This document shows positions 7,668 to 62,817 of a DNA stretch of 64,000 nucleotides, in pieces. The stretch lies in NCBI GenBank assembly GCA_031425615.1, contig JANPJR010000030.1:18492-82491 (forward strand). The letters run 5' to 3'. A model generated the notes under the pieces. It was not told where the DNA came from and made no database searches. It saw nothing but the letters and a program-made list of their open reading frames with translations. The first letter of the stretch is position 1; every line of letters starts with the position of its first letter. Made by a program: the position numbers and the translations under genes. The DNA comes from Cytophagales bacterium (GTDB lineage: Bacteria > Bacteroidota > Bacteroidia > Cytophagales > Microscillaceae).

Positions 7668-8639
7668 ATGAAACTTAACATACATTTCTATTTGCTTATA
7701 TCCATTTTTTTAACCCAACTCATATTTTGTAAAAATATTTTTGGTCAAGAAAATAAAACAAAAAGCGAAAATAATCCTACTTTTGACCATGCGTTACTTT
7801 GGGAAATATCAGGCAATAATGCCACACAAAGTATGTATATTATGGGAACACACCATTTGTATGATAGGCGTTTTTTGAACACAGATAAAAGTATCCAAAA
7901 TATTTTGCCTAAAATTGATGTTTTTGTGGGTGAATTACACGAAGACAGCCTTGAAAATGCCAGCAAAAGTATGATGTTTATGAAATATATGCTCCTTGAA
8001 AATACCACTATGAAAGAATTACTTTCAGAAAAACAATATAAAAAAGTGGATAAAATGCTCAAAGCAGAAACAGGGCTTGCACTTTCTATGCTTAATACAA
8101 TGAAACCGATGGTTACAACGCAATATATTCAAATAGCAAAATACATGAAAAATATCAAAAAAAATGATAATTTTAATATATTGAGTAGCGGTTTAGACCA
8201 TTCTATTGATGGATATTTTCAGGAATTTGCAAAAAAAAATAATAAACTTGTGTTAGGTTTGGAAACAGCAGAATATCAAATGGAAGCACTTTATAATGGT
8301 ACAAACCTAAAAAAACAAGTAGAAAATTTGATGGATTTGGTGGAAAATAAAAATGCAGGAAGCAATGAAACTATGCAAAAAATGGACGATTTGTATGTTG
8401 AACAAGATATTGCAGGTTTATATCAATATTTGGAAAAATATAGCACAAAAGAAGAAATGGAAACGCTATTGTACAAACGTAATAAAAATTGGTTTCCAAT
8501 GTTGATAAGTATGCTACAATCACCCAAAAAGCATTTTGTAGCAGTAGGCTCAGGGCATTTGGCGGGTAAAATAGGCATTTTGACCATGCTCAAAGATGCA
8601 GGTTATACACTCAAACCTATAAAATTGGAAATGAGATAA
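7668..8639 (+). CDS. TraB/GumN-family protein with signal peptide
   Basis: LLWEISG...YIMGTHHL matches the TraB/GumN hallmark (LW.v.g.....yLlGTiH). The N-terminus is hydrophobic. Confidence 0.65.
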   Translation: MKLNIHFYLLISIFLTQLIFCKNIFGQENKTKSENNPTFDHALLWEISGNNATQSMYIMGTHHLYDRRFLNTDKSIQNILPKIDVFVGELHEDSLENASKSMMFMKYMLLENTTMKELLSEKQYKKVDKMLKAETGLALSMLNTMKPMVTTQYIQIAKYMKNIKKNDNFNILSSGLDHSIDGYFQEFAKKNNKLVLGLETAEYQMEALYNGTNLKKQVENLMDLVENKNAGSNETMQKMDDLYVEQDIAGLYQYLEKYSTKEEMETLLYKRNKNWFPMLISMLQSPKKHFVAVGSGHLAGKIGILTMLKDAGYTLKPIKLEMR

Positions 8640-48654: not shown

Positions 48655-49968
48655 TTAAGTATGCAAAACCCCTGCAATCGTCCCTGTAAGCATACACGCA
48701 AGACTCGCAGCGAGCAGGGCATACAAACCATATTTGGAAAGCGTAGCTTGTTGGTTTTTTGCCATTTCGCCAATGCCACCAATTTGTATTGCAATAGAAC
48801 TAAAATTAGAAAATCCGCAAAGCGAATAAGTAGCGATAATAACGGTTTTTTCGTCAAGTGTATGCTTGATAGTACCCAAGGTTTGGTACGCAATAAATTC
48901 ATTAATAGCAGTTTTTTGTCCCAAAAGACTTCCCATTTGCATACTATCTTTATAATCCACACCCATCACCAACGCCAAAGGTTGTCCTATTTGTCCAAAA
49001 ATATACTCCAAAGAAAATTCTTTAAAAATACCTCCTGAAATCTGTTCTACAAAACTATTTAAACCCAATAAACCGCCTACACTTTTACACATAGCATTGA
49101 GCATGGCAATCAACGCCACAAATGCGAGGAGCATTGCCCCAACGTTGAGTGCCAAAAATAAACCATCTCTTGCCCCATTGGAAAGTGCATCAAGGATATT
49201 TGAGCCAATTTGTTCTTTGTTCATTTCAAGGTCTTTTTTGACCAATTCGGGTTGGGTTTGTGGCACAATAATTTTTGCAAAAACCACCGCAGCAGGTGCA
49301 TTCATAATAGATGCACTCAATAAATGTGCTGCAAAAATTGCTTTTTGTGTTGCATCATCTCCGCCCAAAAAATCTACATACATCGCCATCACACCACCTG
49401 CAATAGTTGCCATGCCCCCTGTCATAAGGCACATGATTTCGGAGTGCGTCATCGTAGCAATATATGGTTTGACCAAAAGTGGTGCTTCGGTTTGTCCCAT
49501 AAAAATATTGCCCGCAGCAGAAAGACTTTCAGGTCCTGAAAGTCCCATCGTTTTGCTCATAACCCAAGCCAAACCGTATGCGATTTTTTGCAAAACACCC
49601 AAATAGTATAAACCAGACGATAAAGTAGCGAAGAAAATCACCGTTGGAAGCACCCTAAATGCAATAATTGTCCCAAAATTATGTTTGTAATAAGGCTCTA
49701 CACCTGTGCCTGTTGTACCAAGTCCTCCAAATACAAACCTTGCACCGTTTTCAGAAAAATTTAAAAGATTGACGAAACCGTTGCCTATTACCTGAAATAT
49801 GGCATTTACTTGTGGCACTTTTATAACCAATAACCCAAAAAATATCTGCAATACCAACCCAATGCCCACAAGTCGCCAATCAATTGCTTTTCTATTGGTA
49901 GAAAAAAGATAAGCAATACCCACCAAAACGCCCATGCCAAAAATGCCACGTAGTATATCTAAAACCAT
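48655..49968 (-). CDS. nupC: Concentrative nucleoside transporter, NupC/CNT family
   Basis: The N-terminus (LVGIGLVLQIFFGLLVIK) and the conserved C-terminal core (GFSNFSSIAIQIGGIG..., TLSKYGLYALLAASLACMLTGTIAGVL) are typical of NupC. Confidence 0.85.
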   Translation of the reverse strand: MVLDILRGIFGMGVLVGIAYLFSTNRKAIDWRLVGIGLVLQIFFGLLVIKVPQVNAIFQVIGNGFVNLLNFSENGARFVFGGLGTTGTGVEPYYKHNFGTIIAFRVLPTVIFFATLSSGLYYLGVLQKIAYGLAWVMSKTMGLSGPESLSAAGNIFMGQTEAPLLVKPYIATMTHSEIMCLMTGGMATIAGGVMAMYVDFLGGDDATQKAIFAAHLLSASIMNAPAAVVFAKIIVPQTQPELVKKDLEMNKEQIGSNILDALSNGARDGLFLALNVGAMLLAFVALIAMLNAMCKSVGGLLGLNSFVEQISGGIFKEFSLEYIFGQIGQPLALVMGVDYKDSMQMGSLLGQKTAINEFIAYQTLGTIKHTLDEKTVIIATYSLCGFSNFSSIAIQIGGIGEMAKNQQATLSKYGLYALLAASLACMLTGTIAGVLHT

Positions 49969-50090
49969 GCTGTTTTTATAATAAAAAAAAATCCAAAAAA
50001 TACTATTATTATAATATTTTAAAGAAAGGTTATGTAATGTTATTTTTGTTTATTTTTTTTCAAAGATATAAGAAATAAACATATAAAAAG

Positions 50091-50765
50091 TTAAAATTTG
50101 ATTTTTCCTGTGATAGAATTTACAAATTCCTCCAAACTTTTATTGTTTTTTAGAAATGGTTTTAAGGTTTTCATTTTTCGCATTTCATCTATGATTTTAT
50201 CTTTTTCTTTTTCTTTATTCACAATACCATTTTTTGATATTTTTTTTAATTCATGGTTCAATGTCCTTTTTGGGTCTGCGGATTTTGTTGTATTTTTTCC
50301 GAATTTTGCCAAAATCCATGCTTCTATTTCCTCAATCGCTATCGCATATAGCAGTTCATCTGCATAATTATTTTCAAGCCATTCATTTATAAAGTTTATG
50401 ACTTGATTTCGTAATTCTGTGGGGTAAGCATCGTTATTTTTTTCAGGTTTTTGAAAATCAAAATCTTGTTGGTCTATTTCCGCAGTATCCAAATGAATAA
50501 CCATATAATTTTGGTCATCTATGAAAAAAAACTTATCAAAATATGGTCTTGCGCCATTTTCATTTTTCATACACGCCTTTTTTACGCCTTGTAATGTACC
50601 TATTGTAGTTTCATTTGAATTTTCAGGGTTATTTTTATCTGTTTCGTCTGTTTGATTTTCAGGTTTTACCTGAATAATGTCGCTTTTATCTATCTTGCAA
50701 GCCTGCAAAATACCTGCAATTACTTCTTGGTCGCTTTTTCCTTCTGCAATAATGCCTACACGCAT
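50091..50765 (-). CDS. Small Toprim-like protein (DUF4276/RloB-like) partnered with the upstream ATPase
   Basis: N-terminal MRVGIIAEGKSDQEVI (E-G-x-x-D as in Toprim/OLD-family nucleases and DUF4276). Later acidic motifs (HLDTAEID, AIEEIEAWILA). Starts 17 bp after the ATPase stop. Confidence 0.5.
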   Translation of the reverse strand: MRVGIIAEGKSDQEVIAGILQACKIDKSDIIQVKPENQTDETDKNNPENSNETTIGTLQGVKKACMKNENGARPYFDKFFFIDDQNYMVIHLDTAEIDQQDFDFQKPEKNNDAYPTELRNQVINFINEWLENNYADELLYAIAIEEIEAWILAKFGKNTTKSADPKRTLNHELKKISKNGIVNKEKEKDKIIDEMRKMKTLKPFLKNNKSLEEFVNSITGKIKF

Positions 50766-50784
50766 AATTTTTTCTTTTTAAAGT

Positions 50785-51987
50785 TTAAAAATTTTTAGAA
50801 ATTGCCCCTAAAAAACCCCTTGTCCAAAGCTCTGAAAGTTTATATTTTTCGCCCAATTCATTTGTTTGGTTTGGTTTTATTTTGATGCGTTTGGTTTTGG
50901 TATGCCCATATTGGTTGCGTTTTACCTCAAATAAGCGAATTTCATCATCCAAAAGATTTAATCCATCAAGTATTGCAGGATTGTAGGTAGTAACCAATAT
51001 TTGTTTATCGTTTTCTTTGGCAAGTTTGCAGATTTCAGTCATAAGTTTGCGACAAAGATGCGGATTAAGACAGGATTCTATGTTGTCAATGGCAAAAAAC
51101 GAAGGTGTTTTGTGGCTTATCATCATGGTAAGATAAAAAAGCAGGTGTAAAATACCCTCGTTGGCGTTTTCAGATACAAAAACCAAATTTTTATCTTTGG
51201 GCATAAATTTATCCTTGAAATACAACAAAGATTTATTAAAATTTAGTTTGTGTCCCTCCAATTTTAATGTATCTTCTCCATCAACCAAAAAATCCTCAAA
51301 CCATTCCACAAAATAACTATAACTTTTGAGTTTTTCGGTTTCTTCTGGGGTTAAATTGGCTATCATTTCATCAAGATTTTCCCCAAAAAGCCCTTTTTGT
51401 GAATATGAAAAATTGCCTAATCCCCTAAGTGCTTGCGTATTGAGGGTGTAAAGGGCGTAATTGATAAGATTTTTAGCTATATTTTTTTCTTTTTCTTTAT
51501 TTTTTTTTACTATTTCAACAATATAATTCGCAAATCCTTTGTTCATTGCATCGTCATCTTTATTATTTTGTAATTTAAAAAGCATTTTTTCTAAAATATC
51601 ATTTTCTTGGGCAGAAATTTTTAAATTTTCACCCCAATAACTTTTGATGTATTCTAATTCGCTTGGTGTTGAAGTGCAATAAACTATTTTATTGTCTATT
51701 TTCAGGGTAATATCCACTGTATTTTTATTATCTTGATTTTTCTCATTCCCCTCATTTTCTTCAAACTGATTTACCATTAAAATAGGCTTTGTAACCCTAA
51801 TATTATTATTATGGAGAATATCACCATCAACATGGTCATATTTTTTTGAAACACTTGCAAAAGCCACCGCCTCCAAGATATTAGATTTTCCACAACCATT
51901 TTCACCAATAAACACATTCACACGCCCCAACGCAATGGTGTCACCAGCAATAGATTTGAAATTTTTGATGTGGATTTCTTCAATCAT
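50785..51987 (-). CDS. ABC-type AAA_21/AAA_15-family ATPase (SMC-like, OLD/AbiL-type N-terminal ATPase)
   Basis: IKNFKSIAGDTIALGRVNVFIGENGCGKSNILEAVAF (Walker A). Walker B/D-loop FAIDNIESCLNP. QILVTTYNPAILD resembles the TTHSP motif of this family. 400 aa. Confidence 0.8.
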   Translation of the reverse strand: MIEEIHIKNFKSIAGDTIALGRVNVFIGENGCGKSNILEAVAFASVSKKYDHVDGDILHNNNIRVTKPILMVNQFEENEGNEKNQDNKNTVDITLKIDNKIVYCTSTPSELEYIKSYWGENLKISAQENDILEKMLFKLQNNKDDDAMNKGFANYIVEIVKKNKEKEKNIAKNLINYALYTLNTQALRGLGNFSYSQKGLFGENLDEMIANLTPEETEKLKSYSYFVEWFEDFLVDGEDTLKLEGHKLNFNKSLLYFKDKFMPKDKNLVFVSENANEGILHLLFYLTMMISHKTPSFFAIDNIESCLNPHLCRKLMTEICKLAKENDKQILVTTYNPAILDGLNLLDDEIRLFEVKRNQYGHTKTKRIKIKPNQTNELGEKYKLSELWTRGFLGAISKNF

Positions 51988-52162
51988 TTTGTTTAATTTT
52001 TAGTTATTTTTTTAATTTTATTTTTAATGAAAAAAATTTTTCAAAGATACACAAAAATAAATATCTTTCAAATAATCCATTAAATAAAGGGTTTTTATGA
52101 AATATATATAAAATTTAAGCGTATTTTTGCAACAATTTATACCAAATTGCCCCTAAATTTTT

Positions 52163-52765
52163 ATGCGTATTTTACTGTTGTTTTTTAAGTTTTTTTGTTT
52201 GATTTCCGTGATTTTTTCCTGCCAACTTCCTGATGAACGTGCCATTGACACGCGTGAAGTAGCACAACAAGTGAAAGACCACAAACCAAAAAGAGTAACC
52301 GAAAATGAACTCCAAAAATGGCTTAATGTGAAATCCAATGTGTGGTTTGCCAAAATCCAACGCAGGTTATTAAAACAAATTACGCCTAATATTTCAGATT
52401 CCCTTTTAAGAAAAATACCTTTAAATCCTGAGTTAGATTCTTTGCAAAAAATCTACAAATTTGAACTTTTTTTTGTGTTGCCAAGCGACATAGAGAATCC
52501 AACAATGAAAGCAAGTTTTGACAAAATGCCCAAATACAAAGACGTTTTGTCTGCCCTCAAAACTTACCCACAAAATACGGAAGAAGTGCCAAATATTGTC
52601 AAAATCTCGTCTGCCTCAGCAATGGAAAAAGCCTACAAAACCAAAAACTATATTATACATTTTCCGCTACGTGTGGCTGAAAAAATGCGTGGAATTTGGG
52701 TAATTGTATATGAAAGAGAGCAGGCCATCAGGTTTTTTGATTATAAAGAAATATTATATAATTAA
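52163..52765 (+). CDS. Hypothetical lipoprotein (200 aa)
   Basis: ATG at 52163. The hydrophobic N-terminus ends in FSCQ (lipobox-like). No domain recognised. Confidence 0.4.
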   Translation: MRILLLFFKFFCLISVIFSCQLPDERAIDTREVAQQVKDHKPKRVTENELQKWLNVKSNVWFAKIQRRLLKQITPNISDSLLRKIPLNPELDSLQKIYKFELFFVLPSDIENPTMKASFDKMPKYKDVLSALKTYPQNTEEVPNIVKISSASAMEKAYKTKNYIIHFPLRVAEKMRGIWVIVYEREQAIRFFDYKEILYN

Positions 52766-52880
52766 TTGCCCCCTAATCACCAAAGAGGGATTTTTAAATA
52801 AAAAATACCAATCTATTTCCCCTTTTGAATTTACTCCCTTTGGGGGGGTGGGCTTTCACCACATTACAAAACTAATTTTT

Positions 52881-54062
52881 ATGCTAAAAATTTATACCAT
52901 CATTTTATTTTTAATCCTGCAACATGGATTTTTTTTGCAAAAAACCTTTGCACAAAAAGAAACTAAAAAAACAGAAAAGAAAACAGAAAAAAACCCTGAA
53001 AGACCAACAGAACTCAACGATACCATCAAAATCAATGAGGAAGCAAATGCACTCGCACAAGTAATGGCTGGGGTTGAAATAGAAAACAATAAAATAACCG
53101 AAAACGCTACTACAAAGCAACACGCAAAGGTTTTTGCAGAAAATTGGGAGAAATTGGAAAATACAAGACTTAAAAAATTACGTACTTGGCGTGATAATGA
53201 ACTCTCAAACATCAACCAAAATACCCAAAATCTATTTTATCCATTTTCAGGTCCTGATTTTCTCAATGCTTATATATTGTTCCCTAATTGTGATAATTAT
53301 TTGCTTTTTGGATTAGAAAAATCTGGCGAATTGCCAAAAATAGAAGAAATGAAAGGCGTTTTTTTGCAAAATTATTTGGCAAATGTGCGTAGTGCCTTGT
53401 CTGAAATTTTTTCAAGAAATTATTTCATTACACGCAACATGATGCAAAATGTATCTGCAAATCTCAAAGGTGTATTGCCTATTTTGGCGGTTTTTTTGGC
53501 AAAAACAGACAACGATATTATAAAAATTCAAAAGGTTTTTATAGAAAGGGGCGACAAATTAACCTATACTTCTTTGAAATTTCAAAGCAAATATAATTTG
53601 GTAAATGGACTTTACATTGAATTTAAAAACAAAAAAAAGAATAAAATCCAAAAAATGTATTATTTTGGAACTGATTTTCAAGATAAATCTATGGTAGGAA
53701 AACCAGAATTGGTACAGTTTATCAAAACCTTTGAAAATGTTACTACTTTGACCAAATCTGCCTCGTATTTGTTGCATGGAAGCGATTTTAGCACAATCCG
53801 CAATTTGGTTTTATCGCAAAGTGATGCAGTTGTGCAAGATGATACTGGCGTGCCTTTTCGTTATTTTAAACCTGCGGAATGGGAATCACAATTTTATGGC
53901 AAATACGCCAAACCTGTTAAAGATTTTAATTATGGTTATCAGCAAGATGTTGCCACAAAATTTAATACTGACAAAAGCATAAAAGCCATTGATTTTACGT
54001 TTGGGTATCATTGGTGGACAGACAAAAGTAGCGTGTTTAGGTATGTAAAGAAAAAGAAATAG
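52881..54062 (+). CDS. Hypothetical secreted protein (~393 aa)
   Basis: ATG at 52881 (MLKIYTIILFLILQHGFFLQKTFAQ signal peptide). The track ORF's 5' extension from 52704 merely translates the REP-like GC-rich motifs. Confidence 0.45.
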   Translation: MLKIYTIILFLILQHGFFLQKTFAQKETKKTEKKTEKNPERPTELNDTIKINEEANALAQVMAGVEIENNKITENATTKQHAKVFAENWEKLENTRLKKLRTWRDNELSNINQNTQNLFYPFSGPDFLNAYILFPNCDNYLLFGLEKSGELPKIEEMKGVFLQNYLANVRSALSEIFSRNYFITRNMMQNVSANLKGVLPILAVFLAKTDNDIIKIQKVFIERGDKLTYTSLKFQSKYNLVNGLYIEFKNKKKNKIQKMYYFGTDFQDKSMVGKPELVQFIKTFENVTTLTKSASYLLHGSDFSTIRNLVLSQSDAVVQDDTGVPFRYFKPAEWESQFYGKYAKPVKDFNYGYQQDVATKFNTDKSIKAIDFTFGYHWWTDKSSVFRYVKKKK

Positions 54063-61317: not shown

Positions 61318-62817
61318 ATGGCAAAAAAGATAGAAATCACACCTGAACAAAAACGTTTTGAGGAAATTATTGCACACGCAAAAGCTTACGGTTTTGTATT
61401 CCCTTCAAGCGAATTGTATGACGGTTTGCAAGCAGTATATGACTACGGACAAAACGGTGCGCAACTCAAAAATAACCTCAAACAAGTGTGGTGGCGTGCT
61501 ATGACACAAATGAACGAGGACATCGTGGGTATTGATGCAGCAATATTTATGCACCCTGAAGTGTGGAAAGCGTCTGGACATGTGGATAATTTTAACGACC
61601 CAATGACCGACAACAAAGATAGCAAAAAACGCTATCGTGTAGACCACCTAATTGAAAAAAAAATAGACGCACTCAAAGCTGAAAATAAAACTGAAGAAGC
61701 CCAAAAATTAGAGCAAGAAATGGAATCATTGCTCAAAGTAGAAAATTTTGAAGGATTATACAACCTGATTGTTGCCCAAAATATCAAATGTGAAATATCT
61801 GGTACTTGTAATTGGACAGAAGTAAGGCAGTTTAATCTCATGTTTTCTACGGAAATGGGTGCAATAGCTGACGAAAATAGTAAGATTTATCTGCGTCCTG
61901 AAACTGCACAAGGTATTTTTGTTAATTTTCTAAACGTGCAAAAAACAAGCGGTAGAAAAATTCCTTTTGGTATTGCTCAAATTGGTAAAGCATTTAGAAA
62001 TGAAATTGTAGCAAGACAATTTATTTTTAGAATGAGAGAATTTGAACAAATGGAAATGCAATATTTTGTACGCCCAACAACCGAAATGGACGCTTACAAT
62101 CGCTGGAAATCAACTCGCATGAATTTTTTACACGCATTAGGCATCAATCCTGAAAAATTGCGTTTTCATGACCATATCAAACTCGCCCATTATGCCAATG
62201 CTGCGGTGGATATTGAGTATGAATTTCCGTTTGGATTTAAAGAATTGGAAGGCATACATTCACGCACTGATTTTGACCTTACACAACATCAAAAACATTC
62301 ACGCAACAAAATTATATATTTTGACGAACAAGTAGAGGACAAAGACAAACAACGCTACACACCTTATGTGGTGGAGACTTCCATAGGTGCGGACAGATTG
62401 TTTTTGGCAATTCTCTGCGAAGCATATACCGAAACAAAAGGTGTTGATGCCAAAGGCGAAGAAAAAACACGTCTTTTTCTCAAACTTCACCCTGCGATTG
62501 CGCCTATTAAAGTGGCGGTTTTCCCATTATTGAACAAAGACGGTTTGCCTGAAAAAGCAAGAGAAGTATTTGAAATGTTGCGTTATGACCACGAAACTTT
62601 GTATGAGAATAGAGGTGCAATAGGCAAAAATTATACACGTATGGACATGATTGGTACGCCTTATTGCGTTACGATTGACCACCAAACATTGGAGGACAAC
62701 ACTATTACGCTTAGGGACAGGGACACTACTGACCAAGTACGCATTAATATTGTAGATTTGCCTGCAATAGTGGAGGAAAAAGTATCTTTGAAAAATATTT
62801 TGAAAAAATTAAAATAA
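61318..62817 (+). CDS. glyQS: Glycine--tRNA ligase, dimeric class II type (GlyQS)
   Basis: Class II motif 2 (FRNEIVARQFIFRMREFEQMEMQYF), motif 3 region, and a C-terminal anticodon-binding domain. ATG at 61318. The track ORF begins at TTG 61294. Confidence 0.9.
   Translation: MAKKIEITPEQKRFEEIIAHAKAYGFVFPSSELYDGLQAVYDYGQNGAQLKNNLKQVWWRAMTQMNEDIVGIDAAIFMHPEVWKASGHVDNFNDPMTDNKDSKKRYRVDHLIEKKIDALKAENKTEEAQKLEQEMESLLKVENFEGLYNLIVAQNIKCEISGTCNWTEVRQFNLMFSTEMGAIADENSKIYLRPETAQGIFVNFLNVQKTSGRKIPFGIAQIGKAFRNEIVARQFIFRMREFEQMEMQYFVRPTTEMDAYNRWKSTRMNFLHALGINPEKLRFHDHIKLAHYANAAVDIEYEFPFGFKELEGIHSRTDFDLTQHQKHSRNKIIYFDEQVEDKDKQRYTPYVVETSIGADRLFLAILCEAYTETKGVDAKGEEKTRLFLKLHPAIAPIKVAVFPLLNKDGLPEKAREVFEMLRYDHETLYENRGAIGKNYTRMDMIGTPYCVTIDHQTLEDNTITLRDRDTTDQVRINIVDLPAIVEEKVSLKNILKKLK

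Follow-up and report, generated by a model that had tools for sequence, protein, structure and literature searches.

What does a two-gene cassette between a nucleoside transporter gene and a lipoprotein gene do for a Cytophagales bacterium, and how did it come to lie there? We addressed this question for a stretch of 64,000 nucleotides (contig JANPJR010000030.1 of assembly GCA_031425615.1, positions 18,492 to 82,491 of the forward strand), hereafter the window. An earlier note, made by a model from the sequence alone, had described two minus-strand open reading frames (ORFs) of 400 and 224 amino acids (aa) between nupC and a lipoprotein gene as an OLD/PARIS/AbiL-like candidate antiphage module. 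Both ORFs are present, and their best PADLOC matches are PDC-M31A and PDC-M31B. Our analysis supports the earlier reading, whose core withstood all the refuting conditions that the note had set, with four corrections: the pair, which the note did not know as an experimentally characterized named system, is already listed in PADLOC as the candidate PDC-M31; the repeats that bracket it are also a promoter box; loss of the cassette is as likely as its gain; and its ILVTTYNP motif is a private substitution. We favor, as the probable answer, a PDC-M31-type operon in which an ATP-binding cassette (ABC) ATPase is paired with a Toprim-type small protein and would function by analogy with PARIS, OLD/Gabija and HEC-01. 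The two genes and their flanks are as follows.

50785-51987, minus strand: ATPase gene (PADLOC PDC-M31A), encoding a 400-aa ABC ATPase with an SMC/Rad50-type head
50091-50765, minus strand: small-protein gene (PADLOC PDC-M31B), encoding a 224-aa divergent DUF4276-like, Toprim-type putative metal-dependent nuclease
48655-49968, minus strand: nupC, a Na+-dependent nucleoside transporter gene, which flanks the module from outside and serves as a synteny anchor
52163-52765, plus strand: lipoprotein-like gene of 200 aa, a divergent flank outside the module and the second synteny anchor

The ATPase and its putative Toprim-type partner

The ATPase gene and the small gene lie on the same strand in the order A then B, with a gap of 19 nt (the note had given 17 bp). 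The larger protein had been taken for an AAA_21/AAA_15 SMC-like ATPase, and a Pfam scan bore this out (AAA_21, 4.5e-16; AAA_15, 1.6e-13; SMC_N). It has an ABC head fold with a Walker A motif (G28-E-N-G-C-G-K34-S35), a signature-like motif (E273-N-A-N-E-G278), a Walker B motif (AIDNIE, in which the Asp is D301 and is followed by N302), a D-loop, and an H-loop (T333-T-Y335-N-P inside ILVTTYNP, residues 330-337). The motifs named in the note were thus all found, with two amendments: Walker A occupies residues 28-35 and not ~30-38, and ILVTTYNP, listed there beside Walker B IDNIE, carries a private His-to-Tyr change at the invariant H-loop. The nearest folds are SMC and Rad50 heads, and the protein is SMC/Rad50-like without a long coiled coil.

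In the PADLOC scan, the ATPase matched PDC-M31A best of 101 families (1.8e-80, 269 bits), residues 1-397 aligning with positions 1-393 of the 395-position profile. The runners-up were far behind: HEC-01A, PDC-M25A, PDC-M07A, AriA (1.2e-20), mad3, NsnB, AbiLi, GajA and Old. NCBIfam models, including RecF, MAD3, Eco8 and PtuA, all scored far under their cut-offs. We assembled a family set of 120 homologs with at least 47% identity; at least 2772 proteins were found at E ≤ 1e-20. Walker A, the signature-like motif (ENxNEG) and the Asp of Walker B hardly vary across the 120 homologs.

The small protein begins with MRVGIIAEGKSDQE, as the note reported, and on this N-terminus the note had based a link to Toprim and DUF4276 proteins. 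Direct scans did not recover the link: Pfam and NCBIfam gave no match (for DUF4276, none even at E ≤ 10), PHROGs held no family for the protein, tblastn against plasmid and phage collections found no match, and the family profile searched against PDB sequences returned noise only (E > 1). PADLOC placed PDC-M31B best, at weak scores (PDLC04571, 1.7e-11, residues 1-189 against positions 4-198 of 233; PDLC04573, 3.9e-11), and HEC-01B models matched part of the protein, its C-terminal half (7.3e-6).

The link to DUF4276 emerged instead at the level of the family. This family is compact and unannotated, with members from Saprospiraceae, other Bacteroidota, Thiomargarita, Desulfonema, Azobacteroides and many metagenomes. 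It comprised 118 clusters in a single-sequence search, 558 in a profile search, and 878 representatives at E ≤ 1e-3 among 1.84 billion. DUF4276 was the commonest sub-threshold Pfam match, reached by 14 of the 98 members in our alignment (best 9e-5), and UniRef names one member "DUF4276 family protein." The closest plasmid-borne ATPase, from a Pseudanabaena plasmid (PDC-M31A, 2.3e-79), is followed by a protein that passes Pfam DUF4276 (31.6 bits against a cut-off of 30.2). When the small-protein family profile was compared with this DUF4276 protein by hhalign, the two aligned over their full length (197 columns) with 99.1% probability and an E value of 5.7e-19. AEGKSDQ paired with TEGITDQ, and IHLDTAE of the small protein paired with IHIDSDI (D-S-D) of the DUF4276 protein, suggesting that the canonical Toprim DxD of DUF4276 appears as D-x-x-E in the small protein. 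The small protein falls outside DUF4276 by the Pfam threshold (PF14103), yet profile-profile comparison shows its homology to proteins of that family. A published argument places DUF4276 and RloB within Toprim, with the catalytic residues kept, and Mad4 belongs to DUF4276 (PMC12065111).

In the 98-sequence alignment, E8, P35, C65, D93, W129, E145, E146, W150, K166, N208, S210 and F214 are invariant, and G9, D12, D40, T94, E96 and E148 are among the nearly invariant positions. The AlphaFold model of the small protein (predicted local distance difference test 90.8, predicted template modeling score 0.88) is built of an alpha/beta core with four strands (residues 2-6, 30-34, 86-93 and 138-143), followed by a helical bundle at the C-terminus. 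E8 comes directly after strand 1, the place of the Glu that Toprim domains conserve where beta1 ends; D93 is the last residue of strand 3, and E145 and E146 follow strand 4. The best structural neighbors were PH0156, AriB and OLD Toprim regions. Overall, the A protein matches PDC-M31A, the B protein matches PDC-M31B, and the genes are adjacent and co-oriented; on sequence comparison, the locus is a divergent PDC-M31 member, a type already catalogued in PADLOC as a candidate anti-phage system.

Related systems, distribution and a putative role in defense

We compared the pair with its nearest known systems. Within PDC-M31, the weak match of the window B protein (1.7e-11) indicates a divergent, mostly Bacteroidota and metagenomic branch, and no BREX, DISARM or type I restriction-modification (RM) system surrounds the window locus. 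HEC-01, an ABC ATPase and Toprim-like pair embedded in Hma, has the architecture and the inferred logic in common with the window pair. HEC-01A matches the ATPase at 1.6e-25, and HEC-01B has been reported to have an OLD metal-binding site (bioRxiv 10.1101/2024.01.29.577857); however, the matches at the window are weaker and partial, and no Hma system is present there.

PARIS pairs the ABC ATPase AriA with the DUF4435 Toprim nuclease AriB, has Ocr as its trigger and tRNA-Lys as its target, and differs in its effector family: the window's is DUF4276-like, with no AriB model match. The window ATPase has 400 aa, and AriA is not its closest family. We rejected membership in PARIS because the effector is not a DUF4435-type AriB. 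In MADS, Mad3 and Mad4 are likewise an ATPase and a DUF4276 protein, and PADLOC mad3 matches the window ATPase at 2.8e-19; one locus with a homologous pair (L004, below) has the pair directly after an N6 methyltransferase gene and a restriction-enzyme N-terminal domain on its ATPase. MADS is an eight-gene system, whereas the window holds a stand-alone two-gene unit with no mad4 model match. We rejected membership in MADS, given an NCBIfam MAD3 score of 31.5 bits against a cut-off of 420 and none of mad1, mad2 or mad5-8, of which mad6-8 are mandatory, nearby.

OLD and Gabija GajA have the same two modules; their models and structures were recovered for both window proteins, and the conserved Glu after beta1 and the acidic cluster are common to them and the small protein. 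OLD and GajA are fused, whereas the window modules are on separate polypeptides, with D-x-x-E in place of DxD and no PF20469 Toprim_OLD match. Membership was rejected on the two unfused ORFs and the lack of a GajB-like helicase neighbor. AbiL, a two-gene abortive-infection system, combines the AAA_21 ATPase AbiLi with AbiLii. AbiLi matches the window ATPase at 2.2e-16, far weaker than PDC-M31A does, and AbiL was rejected because AbiLii is not among the 12 PADLOC families matched by the small protein.

We then followed the gene pair in 11 loci (the window, L002, L004, L006, L008, L040, L041, L043, L044, L045 and L047). In 11 of 11, the small gene is immediately preceded by the ATPase gene in the same orientation; the pair occurs across unrelated phyla, and its settings include plasmids, a defense island and two viral contigs. 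The loci outside the window, which include metagenome-assembled genomes (MAGs), plasmids and viral contigs, are listed below.

L040, 719-2623: cassette at the nupC site, as in the window
L041: Cytophagales MAG; pair beside a methyltransferase gene; the nupC locus of the same MAG (L012) is without the cassette
L002, 6699-9376: Bacteroidota MAG; pair between a histidine kinase gene and its LytTR response-regulator gene
L004, 1-8669: pair after two GmrSD genes and an N6 methyltransferase (Eco57I-type) gene; IS21 downstream
L006 and L008: pair in housekeeping contexts
L043: pair on a cyanobacterial plasmid
L044: Enterobacter conjugative plasmid pE5_001; pair beside a SAVED-domain protein gene; B protein archetype-like (PDC-M31B, 3.2e-92)
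L045, 1786-3668: Paracoccus marcusii pMARC2, a 5789-bp mobilizable plasmid with the pair as its main cargo
L046 and L047, 1449-9258: IMG/VR viral contigs; pair beside genes for a 1100-aa DnaG-type primase, a WYL-WCX regulator and a YspA SLOG protein

Several of these settings have features of their own. At L002 the small gene overlaps the start of the regulator gene by 4 nt, so that the pair is wedged in a two-component operon. At L004 the ATPase has 550 aa with a BsuBI/PstI restriction-enzyme N-terminal domain, an RM-embedded, MADS-like arrangement. The cargo of pMARC2 is compatible with a defense or an addiction role, and the setting of L046 and L047 could be a satellite or integrative-element defense hotspot. 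The spread of the pair is patchy and independent of context, often with mobile elements or defense genes, a pattern of accessory immune or selfish modules and unlike that of housekeeping genes.

This distribution bears on two other explanations. One is that the pair is a housekeeping DNA repair or recombination factor, with a RecF- or SbcCD-like ATPase and a nuclease partner. The SMC_N and RecF N-terminal similarity, the name "recombinase RecF" borne by some homologs and the SMC and Rad50 head folds would fit such a factor. We nevertheless consider it highly improbable: the pair is missing at the site in the genome L010, the sister of L040, sits at another locus in the Cytophagales MAG L041, is sporadic elsewhere and occurs on plasmids and viral contigs, and NCBIfam repair models fall far under their cut-offs (RecF, 37.8 bits against 172). 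The other is that the pair is a selfish addiction or stabilization module, in which a nuclease toxin akin to those of toxin-antitoxin (TA) systems is restrained by the ATPase and no phage is sensed. That the pair is essentially the sole cargo of the 5.8-kb mobilizable pMARC2, is patchily distributed, sits in varied housekeeping contexts and has an ATPase domain that Pfam labels "putative AbiEii toxin, Type IV TA system" (AAA_21) speaks for such a module. Several loci, however, lie in or beside defense genes (L004 and L044), and the characterized ABC ATPase and Toprim relatives are all phage-defense systems; the two roles can coexist, and a purely selfish module seems to us improbable.

A role in phage defense is what we infer, by analogy, for the PDC-M31 pair. 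The defense-like contexts in its favor are the GmrSD and methyltransferase genes of L004, the SAVED protein of L044, the cargo of pMARC2 and the viral contigs. Experimental support comes only from relatives, namely PARIS, MADS, HEC-04 and HEC-01. PARIS is an ABC ATPase and Toprim anti-phage system whose mechanism has been solved (PMC11464382), HEC-04 needs both its active sites (bioRxiv 10.1101/2024.01.29.577857), and in E. coli B a representative of HEC-01 gave protection from at least one of T4, T5 or T7 (PMC12881386). MADS is weakened by deletion of mad3 or mad4. To our knowledge, ABC ATPase and Toprim pairs form a large, mostly uncharacterized branch of immunity, with mechanisms available only for PARIS, OLD and Gabija.

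In the mechanism that we propose, an oligomer of the ATPase would be the infection sensor that holds or licenses the Toprim-type small protein. ATP binding would be the switch: once a phage cue is sensed, the small protein would become an active metal-dependent nuclease through a putative site of E8, D93/E96 and E145/E146 with K166, and would cut DNA or tRNA so that the phage or the infected cell is stopped. ATP binding rather than rapid hydrolysis is suggested as the switch by the Asn that the whole family carries at the catalytic-Glu position.

Several observations weigh against this account. ABC ATPases normally have the catalytic Glu directly after the Walker B Asp; here that position is Asn in 120 of 120 homologs (N302, codon 51082-51084), and at the H-loop 119 of 120 have His, with Tyr (Y335) in the window protein alone. 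The ATPase is thus without the catalytic Glu family-wide and, in the window, without the H-loop His as well. At the Toprim DxD position the small protein reads D93-T94-A95-E96, that is, D-x-x-E and not the canonical DxD, and the assignment of E8, D93, E96, E145 and E146 to one metal site is putative. The PADLOC models matched none of the 10 neighbors of the pair, which therefore stands alone and outside any defense island. A literature search for the name PDC-M31 found no mention. PDC-M31 itself is one of 145 candidates obtained by guilt-by-embedding and is a prediction only, and HEC-01 gave no defense in the original test by Payne et al. (both bioRxiv 10.1101/2024.01.29.577857), which conflicts with the protection cited above.

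From its residues, the family could bind ATP yet may hydrolyze it poorly, and the family-wide N302 together with the change at residue 335 suggests that ATP hydrolysis, perhaps weak in the family, may be further impaired in the window copy. The change leaves the activity of this copy uncertain. Codon 335 is TAC (50983-50985), one transition from CAC, and H335Y could be a mutation that abolishes or lowers activity, a polymorphism or an error of assembly. A stronger form of the argument holds that the window copy is impaired or decaying and that H335Y ends its switch or defense function in the source genome. Tyr is unique to the window protein, the L040 ortholog (91% identity) has His, and N302 may, from ABC ATPase enzymology, make the H-loop His more important. 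On the other side, neither ORF is broken or truncated, no other invariant residue has changed, a single transition could be a tolerated change, a young polymorphism or an error of assembly, and an independent Logan assembly yields the identical protein, though possibly from related reads. We think such a loss of function unlikely and retain the PDC-M31-type operon as the probable reading of the locus.

The direct repeat and its probable promoter boxes

The note had placed the cassette between two imperfect direct repeats of ~30 bp with a 12/12 core. The repeat is real. Its exact shared core is 13 nt, TTTTTCAAAGATA; outside the core the likeness is imperfect, and the wider alignment needs a 1-nt indel. 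The repeat copies and an associated element are as follows.

52037-52049: ATPase-proximal copy, reading TATCTTTGAAAAA on the minus strand; 62 nt before the ATPase ATG; likely operon promoter and upstream polymorphism junction
50056-50068: nupC-proximal copy, reading TATCTTTGAAAAA on the minus strand; 23 nt past the small-gene stop and 100 nt before the nupC ATG; likely nupC -7 box and downstream junction
52069-52072, minus strand: TTTG, candidate -33 element, 19 nt upstream of the -7 box (TTTG-N19-TAnnTTTG)

Statistics within the window are modest. When two 200-nt flanks were shuffled, a common substring of at least 13 nt arose in 3 of 200 shuffles, which makes the repeat modestly unusual, and among the 28 AT-rich families that a repeat search of the window returned, the 12-mer was just one. 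This 12-mer, TATCTTTGAAAA, has a third exact copy at 62783-62794 on the plus strand, in the 3' end of a coding gene (61318-62817). The core is therefore not unique to the cassette junctions; the third copy, being inside a coding gene, says nothing about the cassette.

The note had foreseen that the repeat might be a common promoter element, and it does contain one. Bacteroidetes sigma-A promoters have a -7 consensus of TAnnTTTG and a -33 element of TTTG, and the first eight bases of the repeat on the minus strand, TATCTTTG, fit the -7 box. TAnnTTTG occurs in the sense orientation within 150 nt upstream of 16 of the 51 window genes (17 sense occurrences against 9 antisense), and the exact form TATCTTTG lies upstream of four. 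The generic sigma-70 consensus used in a promoter scan is not informative for Bacteroidota. Even so, the element falls exactly at the indel breakpoints among relatives, as described below.

At the cassette ends, a search for terminal inverted repeats returned only low-complexity AT-rich matches; between the repeats lie the two genes only, without a transposase, an integrase or another mobility gene; and at five other insertion sites (L002, L004, L006, L008 and L041) flanking repeats did not rise above chance. Together, these results argue that the repeat is local rather than the footprint of transposition in general. On the five sites without flanking repeats we rejected a cassette-borne att site or a target-site duplication. 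Of the features of a transposon- or integrase-borne cassette, flanking repeats are present; convincing inverted repeats, a mobility gene and repeats elsewhere are not.

Could the two copies then be independent -7 boxes, serving the operon and nupC respectively, alike by consensus and no indel footprint? The fit of TATCTTTG to TAnnTTTG, the abundance of the motif and of its exact form upstream of window genes, the TTTG 19 nt upstream of the ATPase-proximal copy, the third 12-mer, the 3 of 200 shuffles and the five sites without flanking repeats would all be expected of such boxes. The occupied relative L040 argues otherwise, with an exact repeat of 19 nt, TATCTTTGAAAAATTTTTT, at the corresponding positions, well past the 8-nt box and matched in none of 200 shuffles. 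Moreover, the downstream copy begins exactly 23 nt past the stop codon in the window and L040 alike, and the breakpoints of orthology between empty and occupied sites fall right at the motif. Independent boxes are in our view a somewhat unlikely explanation. It is these comparative sites, the 19-nt repeat of L040 and the single copy at the breakpoint in L010, and not the window statistics, that make the repeat real.

Presence, absence and exchange of the cassette

The note had proposed to look for empty sites in relatives. L010, a Cytophagales MAG whose NupC and lipoprotein are 81% and 69% identical to the window's, has one: the cassette is absent, and the lipoprotein gene and nupC are divergently adjacent, ~243 bp apart, with a single copy of the motif, TATCTTTGAAAG. 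In L040, at the occupied site, identity to the window is 82% for NupC, 66% for the lipoprotein, 91% for the ATPase and 70% for the small protein. L010 and L040 are near-identical for ~65 nt up to and through the ATPase-proximal motif and then diverge (alignment A3). Past the motif, L040 runs into the ATPase gene, and L010 into sequence that matches what follows the nupC-proximal copy (alignment A4). The presence/absence breakpoints therefore fall at the repeat, which is a promoter element and an indel junction at once. From this arrangement, we infer that transcription of the operon uses the region that holds the nupC promoter in the empty relative, with nupC keeping a duplicated -7 box.

The polarity of the change is less simple than the note's view of a cassette acquired as a unit. 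Presence and absence at the site accord with that view; deletion is at least as likely, and the five other sites are without the repeats. The NupC proteins of L040 and L010 are 92.6% identical, each being ~81-82% identical to the window's, so that the window genome is the outgroup. Because the empty genome L010 is the sister of the occupied L040, deletion comes into play: for the resulting (+,(+,-)) pattern the simplest history is a cassette ancestral at the site and deleted in L010, plausibly by recombination between the repeats. Loss is thus as likely as gain, and acquisition as a unit is not the sole reading. We rejected simple parsimony as settling the polarity, since the low synonymous divergence of the ATPase gene shows a later exchange.

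That exchange can be read from the divergence of the window and L040 along the locus. Nucleotide identity is 85-98% in the ATPase gene, 71-81% in the small gene, 64-80% in the lipoprotein gene and 69-89% in nupC. At third codon positions it is 84% in the ATPase gene, 71% in the small gene and 60% in nupC, and among codons for identical amino acids, 15%, 22% and 35%, respectively, carry a synonymous change. The low synonymous divergence argues that, since the two lineages split, the ATPase gene has been exchanged, either directly between them or through a common donor. The pattern implies a recent exchange, apparently of the ATPase gene alone, with the small gene and nupC at or near background. 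Non-synonymous divergence of the small protein is unusually high (70% amino-acid identity): the ratio of first- and second-position changes to third-position changes is ~0.66 in the small gene and ~0.28 in the other two genes, a pattern that fits relaxed or diversifying selection on the small protein.

A bolder reading would join these strands. PDC-M31 would be a real defense system in which a hydrolysis-poor ATPase serves as an ATP-binding latch that releases a minimal D-x-x-E DUF4276 Toprim nuclease; separately, recombination at the duplicated -7 box would account for gain, loss and partial exchange (of the ATPase gene alone) of the cassette in this Cytophagales clade, a promoter hijacking without a mobility gene. 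We regard this full account as distinctly unlikely.

The GC content of the window is 32.5%; that of the cassette is 0.30-0.32, and its GC and GC3 are inside the range of the window genes, a native-like base composition with no sign of recent foreign origin. Scans of the region found no intrinsic terminators, and hence none between the small gene and nupC, and an Rfam scan of 49000-53000 found nothing meaningful, with no retron-like or other known noncoding RNA. Within ~5 kb lie genes for an M28 peptidase, pyrF, a membrane protein, NupC, two Pfam-less proteins and a SpoIIE-type phosphatase. The transporter is of the NupC type (Pfam Nucleos_tra2_N, Gate and Nucleos_tra2_C, the last at 1.7e-69), and the NupC proteins nearest to it come from Cytophagales and Microscillaceae MAGs, which indicates a Cytophagales-like source within the Bacteroidota; the flanking 200-aa protein has a lipoprotein-like N-terminus and no match in a Pfam scan. 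Its ORF (52163-52765) and a 450-aa ORF on the plus strand (52710-54062) overlap by ~56 nt in different frames, both being Pfam-negative, and the start of the latter may be mis-set. In L010, a tandem array of ~six copies of the 8-mer GTTTAARG lies directly upstream of the nupC start (~7945-7998); it is not in the window or in L040.

For the family, the value of these findings is incremental: the system was already listed as a candidate, and the picture of defense systems is unchanged. They bring out an annotation gap, since the Pfam DUF4276 model misses almost the whole sub-family (878 representative clusters, with no listed member having a precomputed Pfam domain). They also name candidate key residues, K34, N302 and H/Y335 in the ATPase and E8, D93, E96, E145 and E146 in the small protein, together with a high-confidence model. 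Close relatives provide the site in occupied and in empty form, and an allele that has been partly exchanged, so that the locus offers a natural case for the DUF4276-type branch.

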